This document shows, piece after piece, positions 770-61,930 of a DNA stretch of 64,000 nt. Below the pieces are notes generated by a model. That model did no database searches and was not told where the DNA came from. It saw nothing but the letters and a program-made list of their open reading frames with translations. Origin of the DNA: Conidiobolus incongruus B7586 (Eukaryota); NCBI GenBank assembly GCA_000697335.1, contig JNEM01013221.1, forward strand, positions 1-64,000. Reading direction: 5' to 3'. The number at the start of each line of letters is the position of its first letter. Position 1 is the stretch's first letter. A program made the position numbers and the translations under genes.

Positions 770-1559
770 ATCCTAATTATAATTATTCTCTTTATAAAAA
801 AACCTAATAAATTAAGGTTTTTATTTAAATTCCATAAAAAACTAAAATAACCAAATACTTAAGTGAAATGTATTTAAACTAGAAATTCTAAATATTGATT
901 TTGATATATCATTTTTACCACAATATATTTTTTGTTTATAAATTGATTAGAAAAAAAGGAATTGGGAGATTTTATCATTCTTTAAAATTAATAGCAAATC
1001 ATATAACTAATAATTTTAAATCAGAATCTATTATAGAAATTATTATATAAAAAGAAAAATAACTAAAAAGAGCAAAACAAACTTGATAAATAAAATGTAT
1101 AAAAATATATTAAATATGAAATAATAATATAATATTTTAATTTCCTTAATTTTATAATTTAAAATTGATGAAAAGTCAATTAATATTTTCAAAATAAAAA
1201 TATTAAAGGTTAAGATAGTCTTGTTAAAGATTTCAATAAAGTTTACTTAACAAGATATAAGAATACCTCTGGTTCAAGGTAATTATGATCAATAAATATC
1301 ATTTAAGCAAAATATTGGTAATTATTGATTTCTGGATTTGGAAATCAAATCAAGCAAAACTTTCAAATGTCCTTAATATTATGTAGAGATAGATCAAGGC
1401 ATCAATAATGTTATAAATATACTCCTTCACTCTCTAACAGTCAATTGCGCTAGTTTTCGAGGATTAGTACTGGAGCATACCCCTTGGAGTCTCTGGACTC
1501 CATGCAGGACTTGGACAGGGGTGATCAAATTTGACCAACTTTGGTCAGATTTAATTGTA
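770..1559 (+). mobile_element. Decayed Fanzor2/IS607-TnpB-like element, copy 1 (left boundary uncertain, may extend to the window start)
   Basis: Broken translations: IGRFYH (961), RFQ*SLLNKI*EYLWFKVIMINKYHLSK (1228), KTFKCP*YYVEIDQGINNVINILLHSLT (1356). These match the TnpB/Fanzor Zn-finger and RuvC-III end (KTFKCPxC...DRDxNxAxNIL). The 3' ~200 nt align with 31.1-31.3 kb and 52.3-52.5 kb. Confidence 0.85.
1441..1559 (+). ncRNA. Putative omegaRNA scaffold / element right end, copy 1
   Basis: Stem-loops at 1449-1468, 1472-1483 (GGAG-CATA-CCCC, one mismatch) and 1486-1501 (GGAGTC-TCTG-GACTCC, perfect). Near-palindrome at 1527-1552. Lies directly 3' of the nuclease C-terminus and is conserved in three copies. 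Confidence 0.6.
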
Positions 1560-2427
1560 TTTGTTTATTCTATCTCAGTATTTATAATAATAAAATAGAT
1601 AAATTAATTAGTTTGTAATTTCATTTATTATTTCAAATAATTTCGTATTTTTAAAATAAATATAATAACCTGATTATTATTTCTTAATTTATGGATAGCA
1701 TATAATGTATTATACATCGCTTTGTGTTAAAAATGAATCGTTACTTTAATAATCATTTTTCAAGATATTATATATAATTTCAAATTTTGCATTTATAAAA
1801 ATAACAAAAATCTTAAGATTTTAGTATTTAGATTATAGACTTGTATGACTTACTACAACACCTGAATTAAAATTTTGAATTTTAATTTTTGGTCAATATA
1901 AATAGTATAATAATATTTATATATAGATATATATATATTAATATCAAATTCAAAATAATGCAATTATTCATTTTATTACTGGTTGTACATATTATATTCT
2001 CTCAATGTCTATTCAACTAAAATTAAAAATTCGAGATTCACACCAGTTCTATTATATAGAAAAATTCTTCTATTTGAAATACACCTTAGGTGGTGTGTTA
2101 AATGTAGTCAATGTCTACGTGGATTGTATAATATATTTAGTCTTGATAAAAGCAATTTATAACATATAAAATGATTTTAACTTGGCTTGTGTTTTATGCT
2201 AAATGCCCAAATCCCCCATTTTAGCAAATTAAGTAAACCCTTTCAAAATTTACTATATAAATCAAGTAAAAGATAATTATTAATTGAGGATTTGCATTCA
2301 ATTAGGTTTTTGTCAATTAATAATTATTAATAGCAAATTCATGCAGTTTTGCCATACTTCAAATTAAAACTGATTCTAACTAAAACGTTTTTAACTACTT
2401 TGAAAAGTGTTAATCCTAGTTGTGAAC

Positions 2428-4050
2428 ATGTTATCTTGTGATGCTTGTCGTATTGCTAAAAAGAAATGCAATAGGAAGAGACCCTGTGAGCGATGCAGTG
2501 AAAAAGAAATTGAATGTACCTACAAAGCTACCAGTTATCATTCTGAAGTTGTGCCTAAATACAAACAGTATGAAGTCAGACTGAAGAAGTTGGAAGATAT
2601 GATTTCTCAAATTAGACAATTTAATGGCTTACCTAAATTCGATCCCGAGTTATTATACTTCAATAATCCTTCAGATGATTTCTTCGGATTTTCATATAGA
2701 ATACCAATTAAATCTCCTGTTAAAAGTGTTCAACGAACAAAACTTTATCTCAAGAATTTACTTGAAGTCTTTTTAAATAGTATACTACCTCCTTTTCCAT
2801 TTATTAATCCAGCAACACTCAAAGCTAAATTCGAAATCAATCCTTTTGATAGTCCCTTATTAACTGCAGCATATTGTAAAGCCCAGCTATTTTTAAACCA
2901 GTTTTCAACTAGCTGCTGTGTACCTCCAGTCCTCGATAACTATTTTTATAAATTCACCTTATTATTACTCCAGAAAAATGCAGATGAAATAACTTTAGAA
3001 TCCGTACAAGCCCTATTATTAACATCCCTGATAGAATTAGAAACCAACATGGGCACCGCTTTCAGAGGTCATTGCACCGAAGCCATCAAAAAAGCAAATA
3101 TGCTATACTTGCATGATCCAGACAGTTTCCAAAGAATCAGTGATTTATATATCCTCAAACTTGAAAAAGATGCCACCTGGTGTATGGTATTCCTTCTTGA
3201 TTACTTATCATCCTGTATTTGGGGTCTTCCGCCGATCATGCCTAATTTGCCTACAACAATTAACAATATTGAAGATGATGTTGCCCGGACTTACCAATCG
3301 ATACAAATACCATGTACTTACCCTGATCCGTTGGCGGAGAAATTTTTGTCTATGAAACTATATGTAGCTTGGGTTAAGATATTTAGTATTGTAAACTCTC
3401 ACAAAGCGCCCTTACAACCATTTGATGTATCTTTCCCAGAAAAATTCAAAAAGCGATATACAACCTCTTCAAATGTACTCACAGCAATTCAAAATATTTT
3501 GTCACCTTTTCTATCTCCTGAATACTTTAACTCCAAACACCCTCTGCATCCCGCCCGCGCTGTGCACCTTTCCGTTTATTTATTACACCATTCTGTCATT
3601 ATTGATCTAGTTGAACTGTTGATCAATACCTCCAAAATTATTGATATGCAAGCTTATCCTGAACTAATGGAAGTCACTCAGGCGTTCCATCTTGTACGAG
3701 TTAACTCTGCTAAGCTGTTGAATCAAGTCCTTGGACCACACATGAACCAACTTATTTACCAGAAATCTAATCTAGATCTTAGCTTTGTATTTACTATCGC
3801 TTACTACCATATGTACAAGGCCTTTATGATGGATTTAATATCACCCCACTCACAATTATATGCCAATCGTGCTAAGCAACAGTTCTTGAAATTGATGAAA
3901 TACTACCCAAGCCTGAATAGAATCTTAGTTAATTTGGATATATTAGAAACTGAGCCCAAGACCATTAGCTCTAATGGAGGTTTTCAGTTTATTGGCGTAT
4001 GTACCAGTCCAATCTGCCCTTTTACAGCATCAAGGCAAATTAGACCATAA
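2428..4050 (+). CDS. Zn(II)2Cys6 fungal transcription factor with fungal-specific TF middle domain
   Basis: CDACRIAKKKCNRKRPCERCSEKEIEC binuclear cluster followed by a coiled coil. First ATG is at 2428; an upstream exon is possible (ctaac...aag before 2408). Confidence 0.9.
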   Translation: MLSCDACRIAKKKCNRKRPCERCSEKEIECTYKATSYHSEVVPKYKQYEVRLKKLEDMISQIRQFNGLPKFDPELLYFNNPSDDFFGFSYRIPIKSPVKSVQRTKLYLKNLLEVFLNSILPPFPFINPATLKAKFEINPFDSPLLTAAYCKAQLFLNQFSTSCCVPPVLDNYFYKFTLLLLQKNADEITLESVQALLLTSLIELETNMGTAFRGHCTEAIKKANMLYLHDPDSFQRISDLYILKLEKDATWCMVFLLDYLSSCIWGLPPIMPNLPTTINNIEDDVARTYQSIQIPCTYPDPLAEKFLSMKLYVAWVKIFSIVNSHKAPLQPFDVSFPEKFKKRYTTSSNVLTAIQNILSPFLSPEYFNSKHPLHPARAVHLSVYLLHHSVIIDLVELLINTSKIIDMQAYPELMEVTQAFHLVRVNSAKLLNQVLGPHMNQLIYQKSNLDLSFVFTIAYYHMYKAFMMDLISPHSQLYANRAKQQFLKLMKYYPSLNRILVNLDILETEPKTISSNGGFQFIGVCTSPICPFTASRQIRP

Positions 4051-27990: not shown

Positions 27991-30529
27991 TCATTAATGA
28001 AATTTAGAATTATACTAATTTTTAATTATCAATTCATGCACATTCATTCAAATTAAAATATAACTAAAATTTTTTAATTTTGAATGTTTATATAATATAT
28101 ATAATATTACATTGGTAACTCTATAAAGTTCTTTAATAATAATCAGACAGAAAAAAAAATTAGAAATATATATTAATAAATATCTTTTTTTATTATTTCC
28201 ACACTTGGTAATTTAAGCTAAATAAAAGAGTAAAGTTAGAGTTTTAATTTAATAGGAGATTTACCTTGACTTAATACTTTATTGATAAAGAATAATGAAA
28301 AATATTAATGTGGCATAATTATTACTAGTGATTATTTTGAAAATTTATAATAATTACATCAATAGTATTTTAAAATTTGATTATTCCTAGAATATCTAAT
28401 GATTTCTAATGCACCAATCAATCTTTAATGAAAACTTAAATAGGTAATCATATCAAAATATTTTGGGATTGTTCTATAATATAATTTGGTTTCAACGATA
28501 TAATACTAAATATTTTATTATTATCATTAATCAAATATAGCTTATTTAGATTACATTTTTACTATTCAAATATCAGGGAGTTGGAATTTATTACGAATGG
28601 TTAACTTTTACCATATCACCTAATTATTTTATATATATTCCATAAAATATTCTACTCACAATCTGATAAAATTACTCTCAAATGCTTTGATTTTCCAGCT
28701 TAAATTCTTGATATCATTAATCAGAGTTGCAAATTATTTTATAGTTTCTTTTTATATTATATTAAATCCTTCATTTATCAATTGTATATTAAGCATTTAT
28801 ATTAATATATTAAATAATTAGTATTATATTTAATTACAATATAAGCGCCTTAATACATCTAAGGATTATATTACTTAGTATAATATCTATCAATATTAAT
28901 AATAAATATATTAAAATATCAAGGGAATTGTTTTCAAATTTATTGTATATCTCTTTTTTCTATAATGAATTTTAATTAATTAATTTTTTTATAGTTAATC
29001 AGATAAATAGCACTGATTTAACTTTAATCATGTGTTTCTTTTTCCTCCTCTTAATATCTTACTATTCCCTCTCTGATTATATTAAAATATTATTATTTTT
29101 TTAATAATTAAGATTGCTTTTAATTTTATTATATTATATTGAGATCTTTTGATATATATTAAGTAATATAATTATATAAACTCTTATAGTTATATTAACT
29201 AATATATTTCAAACCTAATTAAACTTACTGATATATTAAGTTAATTATGTCATTTTTAATCCAAAACTTCATTTATACAATAATAACTTTAACTATTGAT
29301 AAATCTTATAAAAATATCAAAAATTAACTTTTTTAAGAAATAGTTTGGTGATTTATAAATCACAATATATAGTTTGTTAATATTTTTTGCTTAAAAATTA
29401 AAAGATATGTAAGATAATAAACTTATATTACTATAATTTATATATAACATACTTTATACCATTATGCCAATTATAACCCTGTTTTATAAGTTTTTTGTTG
29501 AATAACTCTAGGAACAAAGATTTAGATGGATATAAATTTATTTTAATAATAATGATAATAAATTTTATAAATAACATTGGTGAGTATTATCTTTTATGGC
29601 GTAAACTTATTCCTTGTAATAAGCTATTTTATCTTAATAAATTCCATTAAGAAATCTTCAATATCTGAATTCAGTTAAAGGAGTAAAAAATATATACACT
29701 TTAAATAAATAAAAGTTTTACTTAATATATAAAATAATTATTAATACAATGCGATAACAGGTTGTAAACCAATTAAATATTTTAAAAAAGTTTTTCAAAA
29801 AACCAAAATCAAGGCTTTAAATCTGATATTTGAAAAAAAGGTTTTTGAATAGGATAGTTTTGAATATTAAATCAAAATTATATTATATTATATCTTGCCT
29901 TTAAACCATACTAACATAAGTATATAAAATGAATAACTTTATAGCGATTGTTATTTATATATAAAAAACTTTATCACTATAGATTTAATTTAACTGATTT
30001 TTTTACAATTGAAAATAAACATATATTTTTTAATTAAATCATCAAAGAATATGATTCAAAATTTAATTCATAGATAATCCACCTATTATTTGTAATTTTT
30101 TATAGTCAAGAAATCTAAATTATATTTGAAAAAACCAAAAAATATAATATATTGGAAAATCAAGAATAAAATCTTTTTAAAATATGAAATGAAAAAGACA
30201 TTGAAAAAATATTTTAAAATTCAAATAAATTGAATAATTAATATTTTATTATATCTAAAGAGATCAGTATTTTAAATTTGAAAAACTAAGGATCAAATGA
30301 ATAAATATAGATTATTTGAAATATTAATACTTATTAATTATTAAAAAATAACTAATAACCCTGTAAAAATATATAACACGATTATTATTACACAAAAACA
30401 TTCAAATTTGAAAGAGTAATAGAAAATAAATATTGATATAAATTAAATATTAACCAATTTGAATTATAAAAATTGTTGTTTTTATTTTACTATTTTTTAA
30501 AATAAGCCAATTACTCAATGGAACTATTA

Positions 30530-31314
30530 TTGGAAAAGCTCAATTATAATTTCTATCTTCAAAAAACAATACTTAGTGAATGTTATTTCCTCTTATAACA
30601 CTATATGATATTAAAAATGATGATTAAACTCTTAAATAAATAAAATTAAAAACCTCAGTTTATGATATTAAATCTTAAGCTTTTATAAAAGATAATTTTA
30701 TGGTTTGTTTATGAAATAAAAAAATATTAAGAAAAATCATTATCTTTATAATACATGTAAAAAGCCATAGAATAAATAGTTTAAGAAGTAATATGTTATA
30801 TGAAATATCACAAGGTGAGAAAAACAACCAATAATATTAAAAAGAAAAATCAATATATAAATAAGGTACATAAGAAATTTACCAAATTCATTATTAAACA
30901 ATTTCATATTACGACACTTCTCAATTTAAGATTTAAAGATGGTAAGAAGAGCTTACAAATATATTAAAAATATAAGTATGGAAGCAATGCTAAGATAACC
31001 TCATTACAGATCTAAACAACCCCTACTCAACCAAATAAGAAAATACCATTGGTATAAAGTAATCATTTATAACAAGCATATTATAAGTAAAAATATAATA
31101 ATTATGGATATTTGCATATAGAAACTAAATAAGGAAAACCTTCCAAGTATCCTTAATATTATATAGATCAAGGCATCGATACTGCTAAAAATATACTCTT
31201 TCACTATCTAAGAGCCAATCAAGCTGGTCTTCCAAAATTGGTATTGGGGTTTACCCCCTTGGAGTCTCCAGGCTCTATGCAGGACTTGGACAAGGGTGAT
31301 CAAATTTAATTGTA
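30530..31314 (+). mobile_element. Decayed Fanzor2/IS607-TnpB-like element, copy 2 (may extend left to ~29400)
   Basis: EKLNYNFYLQKTILSECYF (30533); INKVHKKFTKF; MVRRAYKYIKNISMEAMLR*PHYRSKQPLLNQIRKYHWYKVIIYNKH (30939); IDQGIDTAKNILFHYL; conserved 3' end. Confidence 0.85.
31215..31314 (+). ncRNA. Putative omegaRNA scaffold / right end, copy 2
   Basis: GGGG-TTTA-CCCC (31246-31257); GGAGTC-TCCA-GGCTCT (31261-31276, fully paired with two G.U); then ATGCAGGACTTGGACAAGGGTGATCAAATTTAATTGTA. Confidence 0.6.
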
Positions 31315-31741
31315 AGCGTTCTACTGTTCTATTATCAACATGTAATAGTTATGAATTATTAACAATTTTTCTTATAACGAATGATTTTTTGTTCTATTTA
31401 TAGAGTCTGATTTCTAATATTAATAAAAATAATAGATAAAACTTAAAAATTTAAATAATTTGAATATAAGTAATTTAGAAATAAAAATTACTTAATTTGG
31501 ATAAACTAATATTTGAAATATGTTCTAATATTACTAAATTATCAAAGTTTTGAAGAATTTGAAGTTACACAAATTCTCCCATGATCTTGTTATTAATAAA
31601 TATTTTAATCTATACAATTCACACTAATATCTCAATTCAAAAATGTTGAAAATTAAAATGTAAATGAAATTCCAGTATAAATAAGAATCCAGTCACTCAA
31701 AATTCTCATTCAAAATATTTTTTTAATCAGTTTTAATTAAG

Positions 31742-50530: not shown

Positions 50531-51710
50531 TTTGAAATAAATTTAATTACAATTAAAATATTAAATAAAAAATTTATATTTTTTAATATTTATTTTATAA
50601 TTATTTAATTGCAGTATAAGTTTATATATGTTAAATAAAGAATATAATTTTTCAATTTTGACTTTTAAATTCAGAGTTTATTTAATTGTAAATGTTAAAT
50701 GATTTATCCCATAAATATGGTTCAAATTAATCTAATTGCATGTAATACTACTGAAAAATGAATTTACTAAATATATTATATTAATTAGTAAACTAAATTA
50801 TATCATAGTCAATATATTTATAATTATTTAAGAATTTTTCAAATTTACTAAATTAAATTGATGATTGAATAAAATTTGATTTAATCAGCTGATAAGACTG
50901 TGAATTATTAAGATTTAAAGATCAAATTCTTATAAAATCAAACATCAGCCCATTATAAAATATTTTTCAATTGAGTTAATTATAATGAAATTAATTCCTC
51001 ATATTCATTTCAGAACTTAAAATATAATTTGAAAGATTAATTGCAAAATAAGCAATTTATTATATATACTGATCTTATCGATTTTACTGTTTTCTAATGT
51101 AGAATACATCTTTGTAATCAATTAAAGAAATATATTTCTAGTTTTGCATTCAATTTTACCAATTTTTTATTTTTCAAAATTGTTAAATAATGTTATTCAC
51201 CAAATAAACATATTAATATAACTATAATTAAAAACTGAAGCTGAGTATAATGCTGTTCCCAGAATTTCCACTGGAACTGAAAACATCTATCAATATTTGA
51301 TCAAGATGTAGATAAGCTATCCCTGGCAGCACAGAAACTTGGATTTTATTTTATAAATACCAATTGTGATATGCTTGATTTTCAATTTAATTGTATTTTT
51401 ATTCTATCTAATTCAATTGCATTCCATTCAAATTTTAGTTTTGAATCATTGGTTTAATATATACATTTATTGAATACTCGCACCATTAATAATACCTATT
51501 AATTTAATTTCATCATCATTGATTTAGTACAAATATACTATATTAAGCTTAACACACTTCACTTTTTTTATTAATTTTTAAATTTATAGTCATTTTTGTT
51601 GTAAATATAAGGACTTAAAATCTAGATCAAAAAGTTAATTTGATTAATCTTAATCATTACTAACTTCCTTTGTTTATAAATATTAACAAGGTCCTACTAC
51701 TATTACAGTT

Positions 51711-52468
51711 GGTGAATTCTATCTTTGTATTCTAATGTAAATGGGAATTAAGTGTCATGACAAAGCTTGTAAATTAAATAAACTGAAAAGAGAATTTTTG
51801 TTCTTAACATACAAACTTTTACAACAGGCTGTTTTCTTTTTCGTTTGCTTATTGAATGGGGAAAACATTCAGGAAATTTATTATCTTTGTAATACTTATA
51901 GCAAAATATAAAGTAAAAAGTATTAGAAGGAAATCTGCTATAAAAGCACAATATTATAAGAAAAGCAACTGGTAAAATCAAAAAGAAGTTTAAAAATTTG
52001 ATAGATTTGGTTTATAAGAAACTTATTAAATTGATTGAACAACATCAAGTAGTTTTATTTCCTGAATTTAAGACTCAAAAAATGATAAAAAACAAATAAA
52101 TATAATGAAAGTAGAAGTATAGGAGTAATGTTAAAAGTAATCTCACTACAGATTTAGACAATACTTACTCAATAAAACAAAGGCATACCTTTGATACAAG
52201 CTAATCATTTGCAACAAATATCACACAGATAAAATATATGGTAATTGTGGATATTTACATATGTAACTTAGATAAGACTTTCAAATATCTTCAATGTCAT
52301 GTAAAAATGGATCAAGACATCAATATTGATACAAATATACTCTTTTACTATTTCACAGTTAATCAAGCTAGTCTTCCAGAATTAATGCTGGGATTTACCC
52401 CATTGGAGGTTCTGGACTGCGTGCAAGACTTAGATAAGGTTGATCAACTTTGGACAAGTTTAGTTGTA
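51711..52468 (+). mobile_element. Decayed Fanzor2/IS607-TnpB-like element, copy 3 (most legible)
   Basis: GEFYLCI (51711); RIFVLN-IQTFTTG..IEWG (51785, RuvC-I 'ALDPGVRTFMTG' relic); NLIDLVYKKLIK..VVLFPEFKTQKMI; SHYRFRQYLLNKTKAYL*YKLIICNKYHTDKIYGNCGYLH (52141); KTFKYLQCHVKMDQDINIDTNILFYY. Confidence 0.9.
52358..52468 (+). ncRNA. Putative omegaRNA scaffold / right end, copy 3 (more degraded)
   Basis: GCTAGTCTTCCAGAATTAATGCTGGGATTTACCCCATTGGAGGTTCTGGACTGCGTGCAAGACTT... aligns with copies 1 and 2; ends TTTAGTTGTA. Confidence 0.5.
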
Positions 52469-52777
52469 TATATTAGATTAACTAATGAATTTAATTAATA
52501 TAGTTATTATTAATTTGATAGAAAAATTTATACTCGAGAATTATCAATTATACAATATATTCAAAAAAATGATAAATTATATAAAGTTATTTTTATGGTC
52601 ATGAAAAATTATTCAATAAATCATAGTAAGCAATTAAATATAAAAATTGAAAATATAATTAATAAAAGACTTATTGATTATATATATATTGATTTTTACT
52701 TATTAGCTGTAGATTAAATAATTAAAATATGTAAAATAAAAATGAATAATTATATTCAATCCTATGAAATTGGGTTT

Positions 52778-58504: not shown

Positions 58505-61500
58505 CTACCATTTAAGAGATTCAATATCTTCGGCACTAGCACAGTTCTTCCTGTTTGAAGAAGTCAATGGCTGAGTCAAAGTGGATTTAACATTTTCAAA
58601 TTGAGAGATGTCGTTGGACATAGCAGCACGGAACAATTTAGATCCATATTTGGCATACATTTCAGAAACACCACCACCAGCCATCAATCTTTCTTCCATC
58701 TTACTCAATTGGAAGGGAAACTGCTCGCCATTGCATTTGATGATGCGATTAGGTACATCAATTTCAACTTCAGCACCTTCTTGAGCCAATTCGTAGAATC
58801 TTTCATCAGCAAGAGTAATGCCCAAGAGAGACATGTTGGGCTGATTACGAGAGTAAATAAAGGCAAATGACTTGGCAATTACAGCCTTGACACCGGCACC
58901 CTTGAGAGCACGAGGAGCTTCTTCACGAGAGGAACCAGAGCCAAAACCGATGCCACCGACCACAATGTCGAAACCGGCCTTGACCTTTTCAAAGAATTCG
59001 GGACGGTAGTATTGGAATGAGTGGGTACCAAGATCTTCATCGGATGTACCAGGCATAAATTGAGCTGGAATGATAGCATCGGTATCAATGTTGTCTTCAA
59101 ATCTTTGAACCTTTCCTGAAATAACTGGAATTCCAAAGGATTCACCAGAGCCTTCAGCAGCTGAACTTTGACCTTGGGAGGCACCAGTTGGAGTAGAGTC
59201 AGCGTAGAGTGGATTGGGTTCAGAAATTTGGACGGGTTGGTTCTTGTCGAGCCATTGATCAAGCATCTCGGCATAACGTTGACGATCAATACCTTCCAAG
59301 AGTTCTCTGGGGTCGCGAATCTTCATATCGAAACTACTGGCGGCGACGGTAGCAGCACTGGCCAAATTACCAATACTACCCTTACCCATTCTGTTTCTAA
59401 AGTTCCTGTTTTGGGAGCTGAGCCATACTTCACCTTCTTCGGCCTTATCAGCAGCTACAGCAATACAGTATGAGCAGCCAGGAGCACCAATTTCGAAACC
59501 GCATTGTTCATAAACGTCAAGCAAGCCCAATTTTCTCAATTTGGCAACGATGGGAACAGATCCGGGTGTGACCTTACGCTTGCCACCAACAACAGGTACC
59601 CAGCCCTTCTTGAGACCTTGTTCCAAGACAAGACCAGCAAGGATAAGATCTTCTTCAGCAGTGGTACAAGCACCAATGAAACATCCATCGAGTTCTTTGC
59701 CTTCAACTTCTTTGACGGAAACGACATTGTCAGGAGAAGGATAGATGGCAACCAAAGAATCAACCTTGGACAAATCGATGGTATAAGATTCAGCATACTC
59801 AGCATCTTCATCAGCCTTGAAATAAAGAGATGAATTCTTATGCTGAGGAACCTTACGCTTCTGAATGAAAGTTTGAGTAATTTCATCAGCTTCGAAAACA
59901 CCAGCAATACCACCAAATTCGGTGGTCATGTTGGCAATGGCAAATCTAGCATCACAACTGAGGTGCTTGAGGCCAGGACCAGTAAATTCAACAGCTCTTT
60001 CGAAGGCAACAGTGTTACGCTTCAATTCACCCATGACATACAAGATAGTATCCTTACCACCAATACCGAAAGGAGGTTCATTAATAAATCGGATGTTAAG
60101 AACTTCGGGAACTTTGAACCAAGTTTCACCCGTGACCAAAGGCATAAGAACATCAGCAGCACCCAAACCAACAGCAAATGCACCGACAGCACCGGCGGAG
60201 CAACTGTGAGAATCAGCGCCGACAATGACCATACCGGGCTGAGCTCTTTGGCGGTAGAATTCAGTGTGAAGAATAGTTTGATTAGGGCCATAGAAATCGG
60301 TCAAGTTGGCTTCTTTAGCAAACTTTTCAGAAGCAGCAATCAACTCTTTAGGTTTAGGAAGGTGATTGATCTTGGGATCCACGGTATGATCGATAGCAAG
60401 CCAGAATCTATCATTTCTATGAATTCCGGGACGGCCCATCTGTTCGTATGTCTTTTCCATACCTTTCCATGTAAGTTCGGAGGCCAAAGTCCAATCAACG
60501 CGTACACAAATCATATCACCAGGTTTGATATTACCAGGTTCTTCGAGTCCAATGGCAGCATGGCAGAGAATTTTTTCACAAATAGTCATACCTCTTCTGC
60601 CAGGAGGACGCTGGAGAAGAAGCTGCTGACCAACACGTGGACCAGGAGACCTGGATCCAGATCTTCGTTTAATTGAATTTTGAAGGGCTTTGACAATTTG
60701 ATCTCCAATCTCGGCAGTTGAAGCTTGACCGCCCAAGTCTTTCGTCCTGAGCTCAAGACCTCCTGAGCTCTTTTCATCTAAGACTTTACGTACTGCATCT
60801 TCAACCAATTTGGCTTCACTGTGAAGTCCTAAAGAGTATTTGAGGAGCATTGCAGCGCTGAGAATGGTACCAATAGGATTGGCAATACCTTGACCAGCAA
60901 TATCGGGAGCAGATCCATGGATAGGCTCATAGAGACCAAAGCAAGGATTTGCACCATCTGGCAAACCGTTGAGAGAAGCCGAGGGAAGGAGACCCAAACT
61001 TCCAGGAATTACACTTGATTCATCACTCAAGATATCACCAAACATGTTTTCAGTAAGGACGATACCATTCAACTTAGTGGGACGTTGAACCATTAACATA
61101 GAAGCAGAGTCAACCAAGTGGTGATCAAGAGGTACTTGAGGGAATTCTTTCTCAAATACTTCAGTAACAACACGACGCCATAGACGGGAAGTGGCAAGGA
61201 CATTAGCCTTATCAATGGAGTGAACAGCAAGGGGAGGGTTATGTTGAGAAGCCATCGTGCCTGCAAGGCGAGCTATTCTTTGTACTTCGGAAACCTTATA
61301 GGGCATTGTGTCATAAGCTAAATAAATAATTAGATTTTAACTAAAGTAAACTCACAATATAAATTACCTAGACCATCAGCATCTTCTTCTTGTCTCTCGC
61401 CAAAGTAAACACCCCCAACGAGTTCTCTTATGACGATGAATTCAGTACCTTGGACCACTTCAGATTTTAGAGGGCTATTATTTACAAGTGATTGACTGGG

Positions 61501-61930
61501 GAATACACAAGGTCTAATATTAGCAAATAGATCCAACTCTTTGCGAAGGCTCAACAACCCTTGTTCAGGGCGAGGTCCAAGTCCCTTAGAGGAATCGGAG
61601 GGATCTACAGGCTTGGGCCATTGAGGACCGCCAACAGCTCCCAAAAGGATAGCAGTGGCTGATTTACAAGCTTCAGCTGTAGATGGAGGGAAAGGATGAC
61701 CTTTGGATGGGATTAGATAAACCTTTAGTATTGAAGAGTTAGGATTTACCTGTCTGATCAATAGCATGACCACCAAAAGCATGTTCTTCAAATTGAAATT
61801 CCCATGTATCATTGTTTTGAGCAATTACTTCCAAAACTCTTCTAGCTTGAGCGGTGACTTCGGGACCAATCCCGTCACCTGGCAAAACAACAATCTTTGC
61901 TATTTTTTTGCTATTTGTATATGTACTCAT
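58505..61930 (-). CDS. Fusion of 3-isopropylmalate dehydrogenase (Leu2/LeuB) with aconitase-family isomerase large (LeuC-like) and small (LeuD-like) domains; exons 61930-61750, 61700-61368, 61317-58505; ~1108 aa
   Basis: [28 protein letters not shown] and [12 protein letters not shown], then without a stop or intron [51 protein letters not shown] and [10 protein letters not shown]. Confidence 0.93.

Follow-up and report, generated by a model that had tools for sequence, protein, structure and literature searches.

The window analysed here, a stretch of 64,000 nucleotides with a GC content of 28%, carries fungal genes split by introns and, among them, three decayed copies of one element, numbered 1 to 3 in their order along the forward strand (Table 1). 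The best named relatives of a housekeeping gene are from Neoconidiobolus thromboides (69%) and Entomophthora muscae (65%), with one closer protein at 94%, and based on these named relatives the host is referred to as entomophthoralean-like. One long frame (58505-61824) apparently encodes isopropylmalate dehydrogenase-like and aconitase-family (isomerase) domains, which we take to be a possible fused gene of the leucine or lysine pathway. Two sets of sequences were compared with the copies. Briefly, other copies in the genome were viewed via contigs from four runs of one sample, the possible source of the window DNA, with 46 to 49 contigs per run aligned to copy 2 (31320-31403 is uncovered, a gap that is uninformative) and 40 contigs, from one run, aligned to copy 1. 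The second set comprises 110 fetched relative loci (L001 and following), of which L001 is the closest DNA relative of the copies.

Table 1. Positions of the features of the three element copies in the window and the basis of each assignment
Feature	Position	Strand	Basis
Copy 1, Fanzor2 pseudogene remnant	971-1534	+	tblastn with P0001, E 5e-16
Copy 1, putative omegaRNA core, pseudoknot hairpin (1472-1483) to eroded end	1472-1563	+	loop pairing
Copy 1, array of four 10-bp units, including hairpin 1527-1552	1512-1551	+	direct reading
Copy 2, remnant (3' half) of a Fanzor2 pseudogene, interrupted by stops and frameshifts; 5' limit weak	30521-31309	+	tblastn with P0001, E 8e-21; weak HSP from 30521
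Copy 2, putative omegaRNA hairpin, its 6-nt loop being one side of the pseudoknot	31246-31257	+	alignment with relatives, covariation
Copy 2, array of two 10-bp subterminal units left of the family's four	31287-31306	+	reading, contigs, P0001 C-terminus aligning to 31306
Copy 2, Fanzor2 stop codon, just after the two units	31307-31309	+	C-terminal alignment of P0001 reaching 31306
Copy 2, 3' pseudoknot strand (31312-31317) and terminal G; intact right end at 31318	31312-31318	+	pairing, relatives' ends, profile
Copy 2, host flank, would-be guide of the active ancestor	31319-31335	+	inferred from junction
Copy 3, Fanzor2 pseudogene remnant	51708-52450	+	tblastn with P0001, E 1e-25
Copy 3, putative omegaRNA core, pseudoknot hairpin (52390-52401) to eroded end	52390-52472	+	loop pairing
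Copy 3, array of three 10-bp units	52431-52460	+	direct reading

Each copy contains the remnant of a Fanzor2 gene. Nine raw frames of the window yielded no Pfam family; a phmmer search with copy 3, its stops written as X, returned 11 matches, 10 of which carry PF07282, and the best of them, P0001, aligned back to all three copies by tblastn (Table 1). Both searches find in the window copies C-terminal RuvC-ZnF motifs homologous to those of TnpB/Fanzor. The named close protein relatives are from Racocetra, Gigaspora, Scutellospora, and Diversispora; P0029, 85% identical to P0001, has the C-terminus of CAG8798034.1 (Table S2 of PMC10711439), and P0031 matches ApmFz2 best in the PDB (9B0L, E 1e-27). 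The DPG motif (RuvC-I) is present in intact close relatives (P0026, P0027, and P0030 to P0034) and eroded or absent in the window copies, all of which have stops and frameshifts, a DRD motif that reads DQG or DQD, and zinc cysteines that are partly gone. The recognisable part of each copy is the 3' half alone and no open frame is kept. None of the copies encodes an intact RNA-guided nuclease, which counts against an active Fanzor2 and not against a Fanzor2 relic.

The copies are 68 to 72% identical to each other over the last 360 to 630 bp and 65 to 68% identical to L001. Compared to the latter, they show 47, 49, and 53 GC-to-AT transitions versus 18, 23, and 22 in the reverse direction, a direction that is not certain because L001 is a relative and not the ancestor. 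The CpG observed/expected ratio is 0.14-0.24 in the copies versus 0.61-0.63 in two host genes. Identity within the guide-RNA scaffold (see below) is 79, 75, and 74% for the three copy pairs versus 71, 71, and 75% for the coding part, slightly higher for the scaffold in two of the three, and the 60-base flanks have a gapped identity of 71-76%, which is uninformative in such AT-rich DNA. Two further stretches lie close to copy 3. A slightly GC-richer patch at 51240-51345, with short words like Fanzor2 motifs (LFPEF, DQDVD), is not picked up by profile searches and is possibly a host exon or a product of chance. A 24-base look-alike of the copy 1 end and flank occurs at 51386-51409, 300 bp upstream of the copy 3 remnant; its score of 20 is reached by only 1 in 150 comparable random 26-mers, but two DNA profiles found no fourth copy there, and it is likely a chance match.

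An earlier note on this DNA had described 10-nt units just inside the right end, numbering four, two, and three in copies 1 to 3, and a near-palindrome at 1527-1552 of copy 1. Both descriptions were confirmed (11 of 12 positions of the palindrome pair). Within the window, phased unit pairs on the + strand are confined to the three arrays, and a 26-base piece of the element end occurs twice versus 0.00 expected. A weight matrix built from the arrays found no left-end array in the window, its best other triple scoring 12.3 versus 32-35 for copies 1 and 3. The C-terminus of P0001 extends into the array and its stop directly follows the second unit, as do those of copies 1 and 2. With regard to the varying number of units, the differing counts are real, and they are due to deletion in decayed copies and not to designed variation: L001 has four units, same-sample contigs leaving copy 2 at 31307 have two extra ones, and the family state is four, with copies 2 and 3 shortened by 20 and 10 bp. 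In 23 relatives, over the 44 bases before the pseudoknot strand (see below), identity at a lag of 10 is 0.391 versus 0.282 in shuffled sequences (z 6.8), with a further peak at lag 20 (z 4.4) and shoulders at lags 9 and 19; no such periodicity is present outside the array, where lag-10 identity is 0.28 in the flanks and 0.265 upstream. The short phased direct repeats that the earlier note had seen near the right end are found, then, both in the window arrays and in the relatives.

By analogy to the work on IS1535 and the Cbo IStron, the units are likely TnpA binding sites. TnpA binds phased subterminal motifs, with helical phasing in IS1535 (PMC6188088), and a saturation study on a bacterial IS607 end reports no obvious discrete TnpA sites (10.64898/2026.03.11.711047). 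The units might instead be only the arms of the terminal omegaRNA hairpin, that is, short tandem duplications of a self-complementary word without a role as transposase sites. The core of the unit, TGATCA, is self-complementary, and folding turns the array into a single long hairpin, with z values of -3.5 for L001, -2.9 for L003, and -2.6 for copy 1. Also, the sharing of units with left ends is not significant (same units inverted at left ends of relatives, seven families, p 0.065; forward-orientation control, p 0.082). Since the core is self-complementary, direct repeats and palindromes arise together and the palindrome of copy 1, predicted from folding to be the terminal hairpin of the omegaRNA, does not count as independent evidence. 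However, a hairpin does not need a 10-bp period, yet 23 diverse relatives with differing units have clear peaks at lags of 10 and 20, and the period agrees with the helical phasing given for IS1535 (PMC6188088). The roles of hairpin and transposase site are compatible. We consider it unlikely that the units served the hairpin only.

The earlier assignment to the IS607 type, with a TnpB-like (Fanzor2) gene, holds, given that many intact relatives have TnpA upstream and that relatives have different flanks after a sharp end. A TnpA motif is present in 46 of the 110 relative loci, and a serine-recombinase TnpA lies upstream in 18 of the 36 loci with a defined end. Motif, profile, and tblastn searches of the window for TnpA remnants gave no real match, no left end of the element was found in it, and the 5' halves of the copies are unrecognisable. 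The IS607 membership of the window copies is thus argued from their relatives, and transposase binding and guide use are proposed for the ancestor only, the copies having no TnpA, left end, or open frame. An IS607-Fanzor2 family of 2.2 kb (L003, positions 1356-3558, together with L005, L007, L010, and L013) is >99% identical, has TnpA and different flanks, and was recently active. Its members do not share one left breakpoint, which points to alternative left ends or to truncation at the 5' side. In L003 and L006, the TnpA frame ends after ~130 aa, perhaps due to an intron or a frameshift. Two TnpA motifs each occur in L020 and L039, suggesting nested or neighbouring IS607 elements.

At the junctions of the relatives, CG is found on both sides in L003/L007 and at most right ends, while L033/L040 start with CCG; the left junctions of these two pairs start at CG, preceded by C or A. 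The only junction surviving in the window is the right one of copy 2, and no empty site turned up. In other IS607 systems, a dinucleotide crossover and a pseudoknot adjoining the guide are described (PMC10711439, PMC11832414), as is a right end common to excision and omegaRNA (10.64898/2026.03.11.711047). The G ending the element is likely part of a CG crossover core, and the few junctions suggest a CCG-like TAM for the clade. The GCG at the right end may avoid self-cutting, as suggested by ISXfa1, in which GGG versus CGG has this effect (10.1101/2023.08.09.552727). A different origin would be the capture of a Fanzor2 by a non-IS607 eukaryotic transposon, the repeats being the ends of the latter. 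Captures are described for mollusc and Chloropicon Fanzor2* (PMC10711439), and no TnpA was detected in the window; yet this absence says little, because the 5' halves are gone altogether. Considering that the layout and the terminal sequence of the end match those of relatives with TnpA, and that the L003 family showed neither a terminal inverted repeat nor a target duplication, a capture is very improbable.

The position of the right end itself had to be moved. The sequence TTTA(A/G)TTGTA does end at 1559, 31314, and 52468, as previously given, and is by itself unspecific, with four further occurrences in the window. The claim that homology among copies stops at TTGTA did not hold: same-sample contigs and intact relatives run four bases on (...GTAAGCG), and homology past TTGTA in other copies is what the earlier note had itself named as speaking against its placement. 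Leaving copy 2 at 31307, 14 contigs have the two additional units and a tail reaching ...TTGTAAGC. Among the 40 contigs on copy 1, at least five continue past 1559 with a consensus starting AGC (agreement 0.61 over 30 letters) and at least four more carry an eroded version of this tail; the summed contig depth is down to the level of copy 1's own contig by 1569 (one run). From the contigs, the genome appears to hold tens of element copies, a number that they do not give exactly. On the side of the relatives, L001 ends in ...GTAAGCG and the intact ones in ...GTAAGCG or ...GTAGGCG, while five near-identical copies of the L003 family have ...GTAGGCGT in common and diverge thereafter. The right breakpoints of eight usable clusters of the clade fall at GCG or at most 3 nt after it in five cases and at variant ends in three, and on copy 2, a DNA profile built exclusively from relatives ends at 31318. 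These comparisons place the true right ends at 1563, 31318, and 52472 in copies 1, 2, and 3. Copy 2 alone keeps the intact end; AGCG is replaced by TTTG in copy 1 and by TATA in copy 3, most likely its eroded remains. Because contigs and intact relatives continue through AGC(G), the "agcg" at the start of copy 2's supposed flank is assigned to the element. An element end at TTGTA directly followed by guide, as the differing next bases of the three window copies might indicate, is next to impossible with contigs and relatives going on to AGC(G) and with the extra bases pairing with an upstream loop in all three copies.

This loop, of 6 nt, belongs to a 3-bp hairpin located ~85-130 nt upstream of the end, and can pair with the six bases that precede the terminal G. 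In copy 2, 31249-31254 and 31312-31317 form five Watson-Crick pairs and one GU; in copy 1, 1475-1480 and 1557-1562 form four and one GU, and in copy 3, 52393-52398 and 52466-52471 form five, so that 5, 6, and 5 of 6 pairs are kept in copies 1, 2, and 3 if GU is counted. Across 28 non-redundant loci, the mean is 4.46 Watson-Crick pairs of 6 versus 2.91 +/- 0.19 with shuffled partners (0 of 5000 shuffles). The anchors were set independently of pairing, and of 83 anchored loci, 32 were excluded for weak anchors, 8 for being too short, and 15 as duplicates. The terminal scorer of this test rewarded GCG, and a GCG count derived from it is therefore circular. In an alignment (A4) of 20 relatives chosen for pairing and the three window copies (23 sequences), all six pairs change on both sides, and covariation is 0.56 versus 0.21 shuffled and at most 0.20 slid, with the reservation that kinship can beat the shuffle control. 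Covariation thus supports an omegaRNA at the element's right end whose pseudoknot adjoins the guide, a layout described for ISXfa1 and ApmFz2 (PMC10711439, PMC11832414); a search of the window and five loci against Rfam gave no match. Compared to copy 2 and L001, the pseudoknot of copy 1 has changed on both sides, hinting that copy 1 comes from a subfamily that was separate while still active.

Since the end lies 4 nt further, the three guides listed in the earlier note begin inside the scaffold. Their derivation from the flank stands, while their positions are four bases off. The first flank base of copy 2 is T, the commonest one in the relatives (16 of 34). Within the window, no target was found for the corrected guide of copy 2, and those of copies 1 and 3 match only AT-rich sequence (11 to 12 of 12) without the CG-ending motif. 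The idea that each insertion would specify its own guide fits the ancestor, and not a working system at this locus, because all three copies are pseudogenes.

We consider the feature, with a probability of about 0.9, to be the right end of a Fanzor2 transposon of the IS607 type, which is broken and belongs to a set of three decayed copies. Its units were likely TnpA sites as well as an omegaRNA hairpin in the ancestor. In that ancestor, by analogy to known IS607 elements, TnpA dimers would have assembled on the phased units and cut at a CG dinucleotide common to both ends and the target, giving insertion without target duplication. As RNA, the units would form the final hairpin of the scaffold, and transcription past the end and on into the flank would yield an omegaRNA with the guide starting after CG. 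The guided Fanzor2 would then cut empty sites beside a CG-ending motif, perhaps CCG. After spreading to tens of genomic places, the family died: its copies decayed from GC to AT, slippage removed units, and the 5' half disappeared. In a wider scenario, an IS607-Fanzor2 lineage with a CG core moved between arbuscular mycorrhizal and entomophthoralean fungi, perhaps carried by giant viruses, while the tens of gene-dead copies in this genome still make omegaRNAs, a library of ghost guides that would serve an intact Fanzor2 at another locus. The only hints are the scaffolds slightly better kept in two of three pairs, the partly kept pairing, and the alike viral ends, and we regard this scenario as speculative and improbable. 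Viral contigs (L081-L084 and L107) carry the clade's element with a pseudoknot-type end and are a possible route between hosts.

Among known systems, ApmFz2/ISvMimi (9B0L), ACa-1/2, and ISvNY2A (PMC3627910, PMC11832414) likewise have a Fanzor2 gene with DPG and TnpA upstream, both seen here in intact relatives. IS607 Fanzor2 of the ApmFz2 type also share the lack of terminal inverted repeats and a right-end omegaRNA with a pseudoknot by the guide (PMC11832414), whereas here the core looks like CG instead of GG, the scaffold takes up ~85-130 nt from hairpin to end, and the window copies are dead. The Glomeromycota Fanzor2 (Racocetra persica CAG8798034.1, Diversispora epigaea RHZ56817.1) are of the identical protein clade, and FZ2 rows for Glomeromycota fungi are present in the supplement of PMC10432273; the host here is, instead, entomophthoralean-like. 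For NlovFz2 of Naegleria lovaniensis, PMC10432273 gives the TAM 5'-CCG, which agrees with CCG/ACG at the relatives' left junctions, the clade's own TAM being suggested by few junctions. IS1535, ISXfa1, and CboIStron have in common with the element the phased direct repeats, the dinucleotide crossover, and terminal bases shared by excision and the omegaRNA pseudoknot; they differ in their GG core and in that TnpA binding was tested there, and no intron is present here.

Conidiobolus, Entomophthora, and Zoopagomycota have no matches in the supplements of PMC10711439, PMC10432273 (one scanned file aside), and PMC10530073; preprint supplements could list further hosts. In published full texts, no pairing of Conidiobolus with IS607 or of Fanzor with Entomophthora was found, whereas Fanzor and Zoopagomycota do co-occur. 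The novelty is ordinary: the system is described and the protein clade is in print, and the copies would be a new fossil IS607-Fanzor2 in a host group absent from the tables searched. As dead copies of a described system with a catalogued protein clade, they have little significance as such. They extend the range of IS607-Fanzor2 to an entomophthoralean-like fungus, and their comparison fixes the boundary between scaffold and guide in a large clade of intact Fanzor2, such as the L003 family with its TnpA and several insertions, and provides a candidate CG core for it. Both boundary and core are needed for nuclease assays on members of this clade, and for asking if transposase and guide RNA use one and the same stretch of 40 bases.
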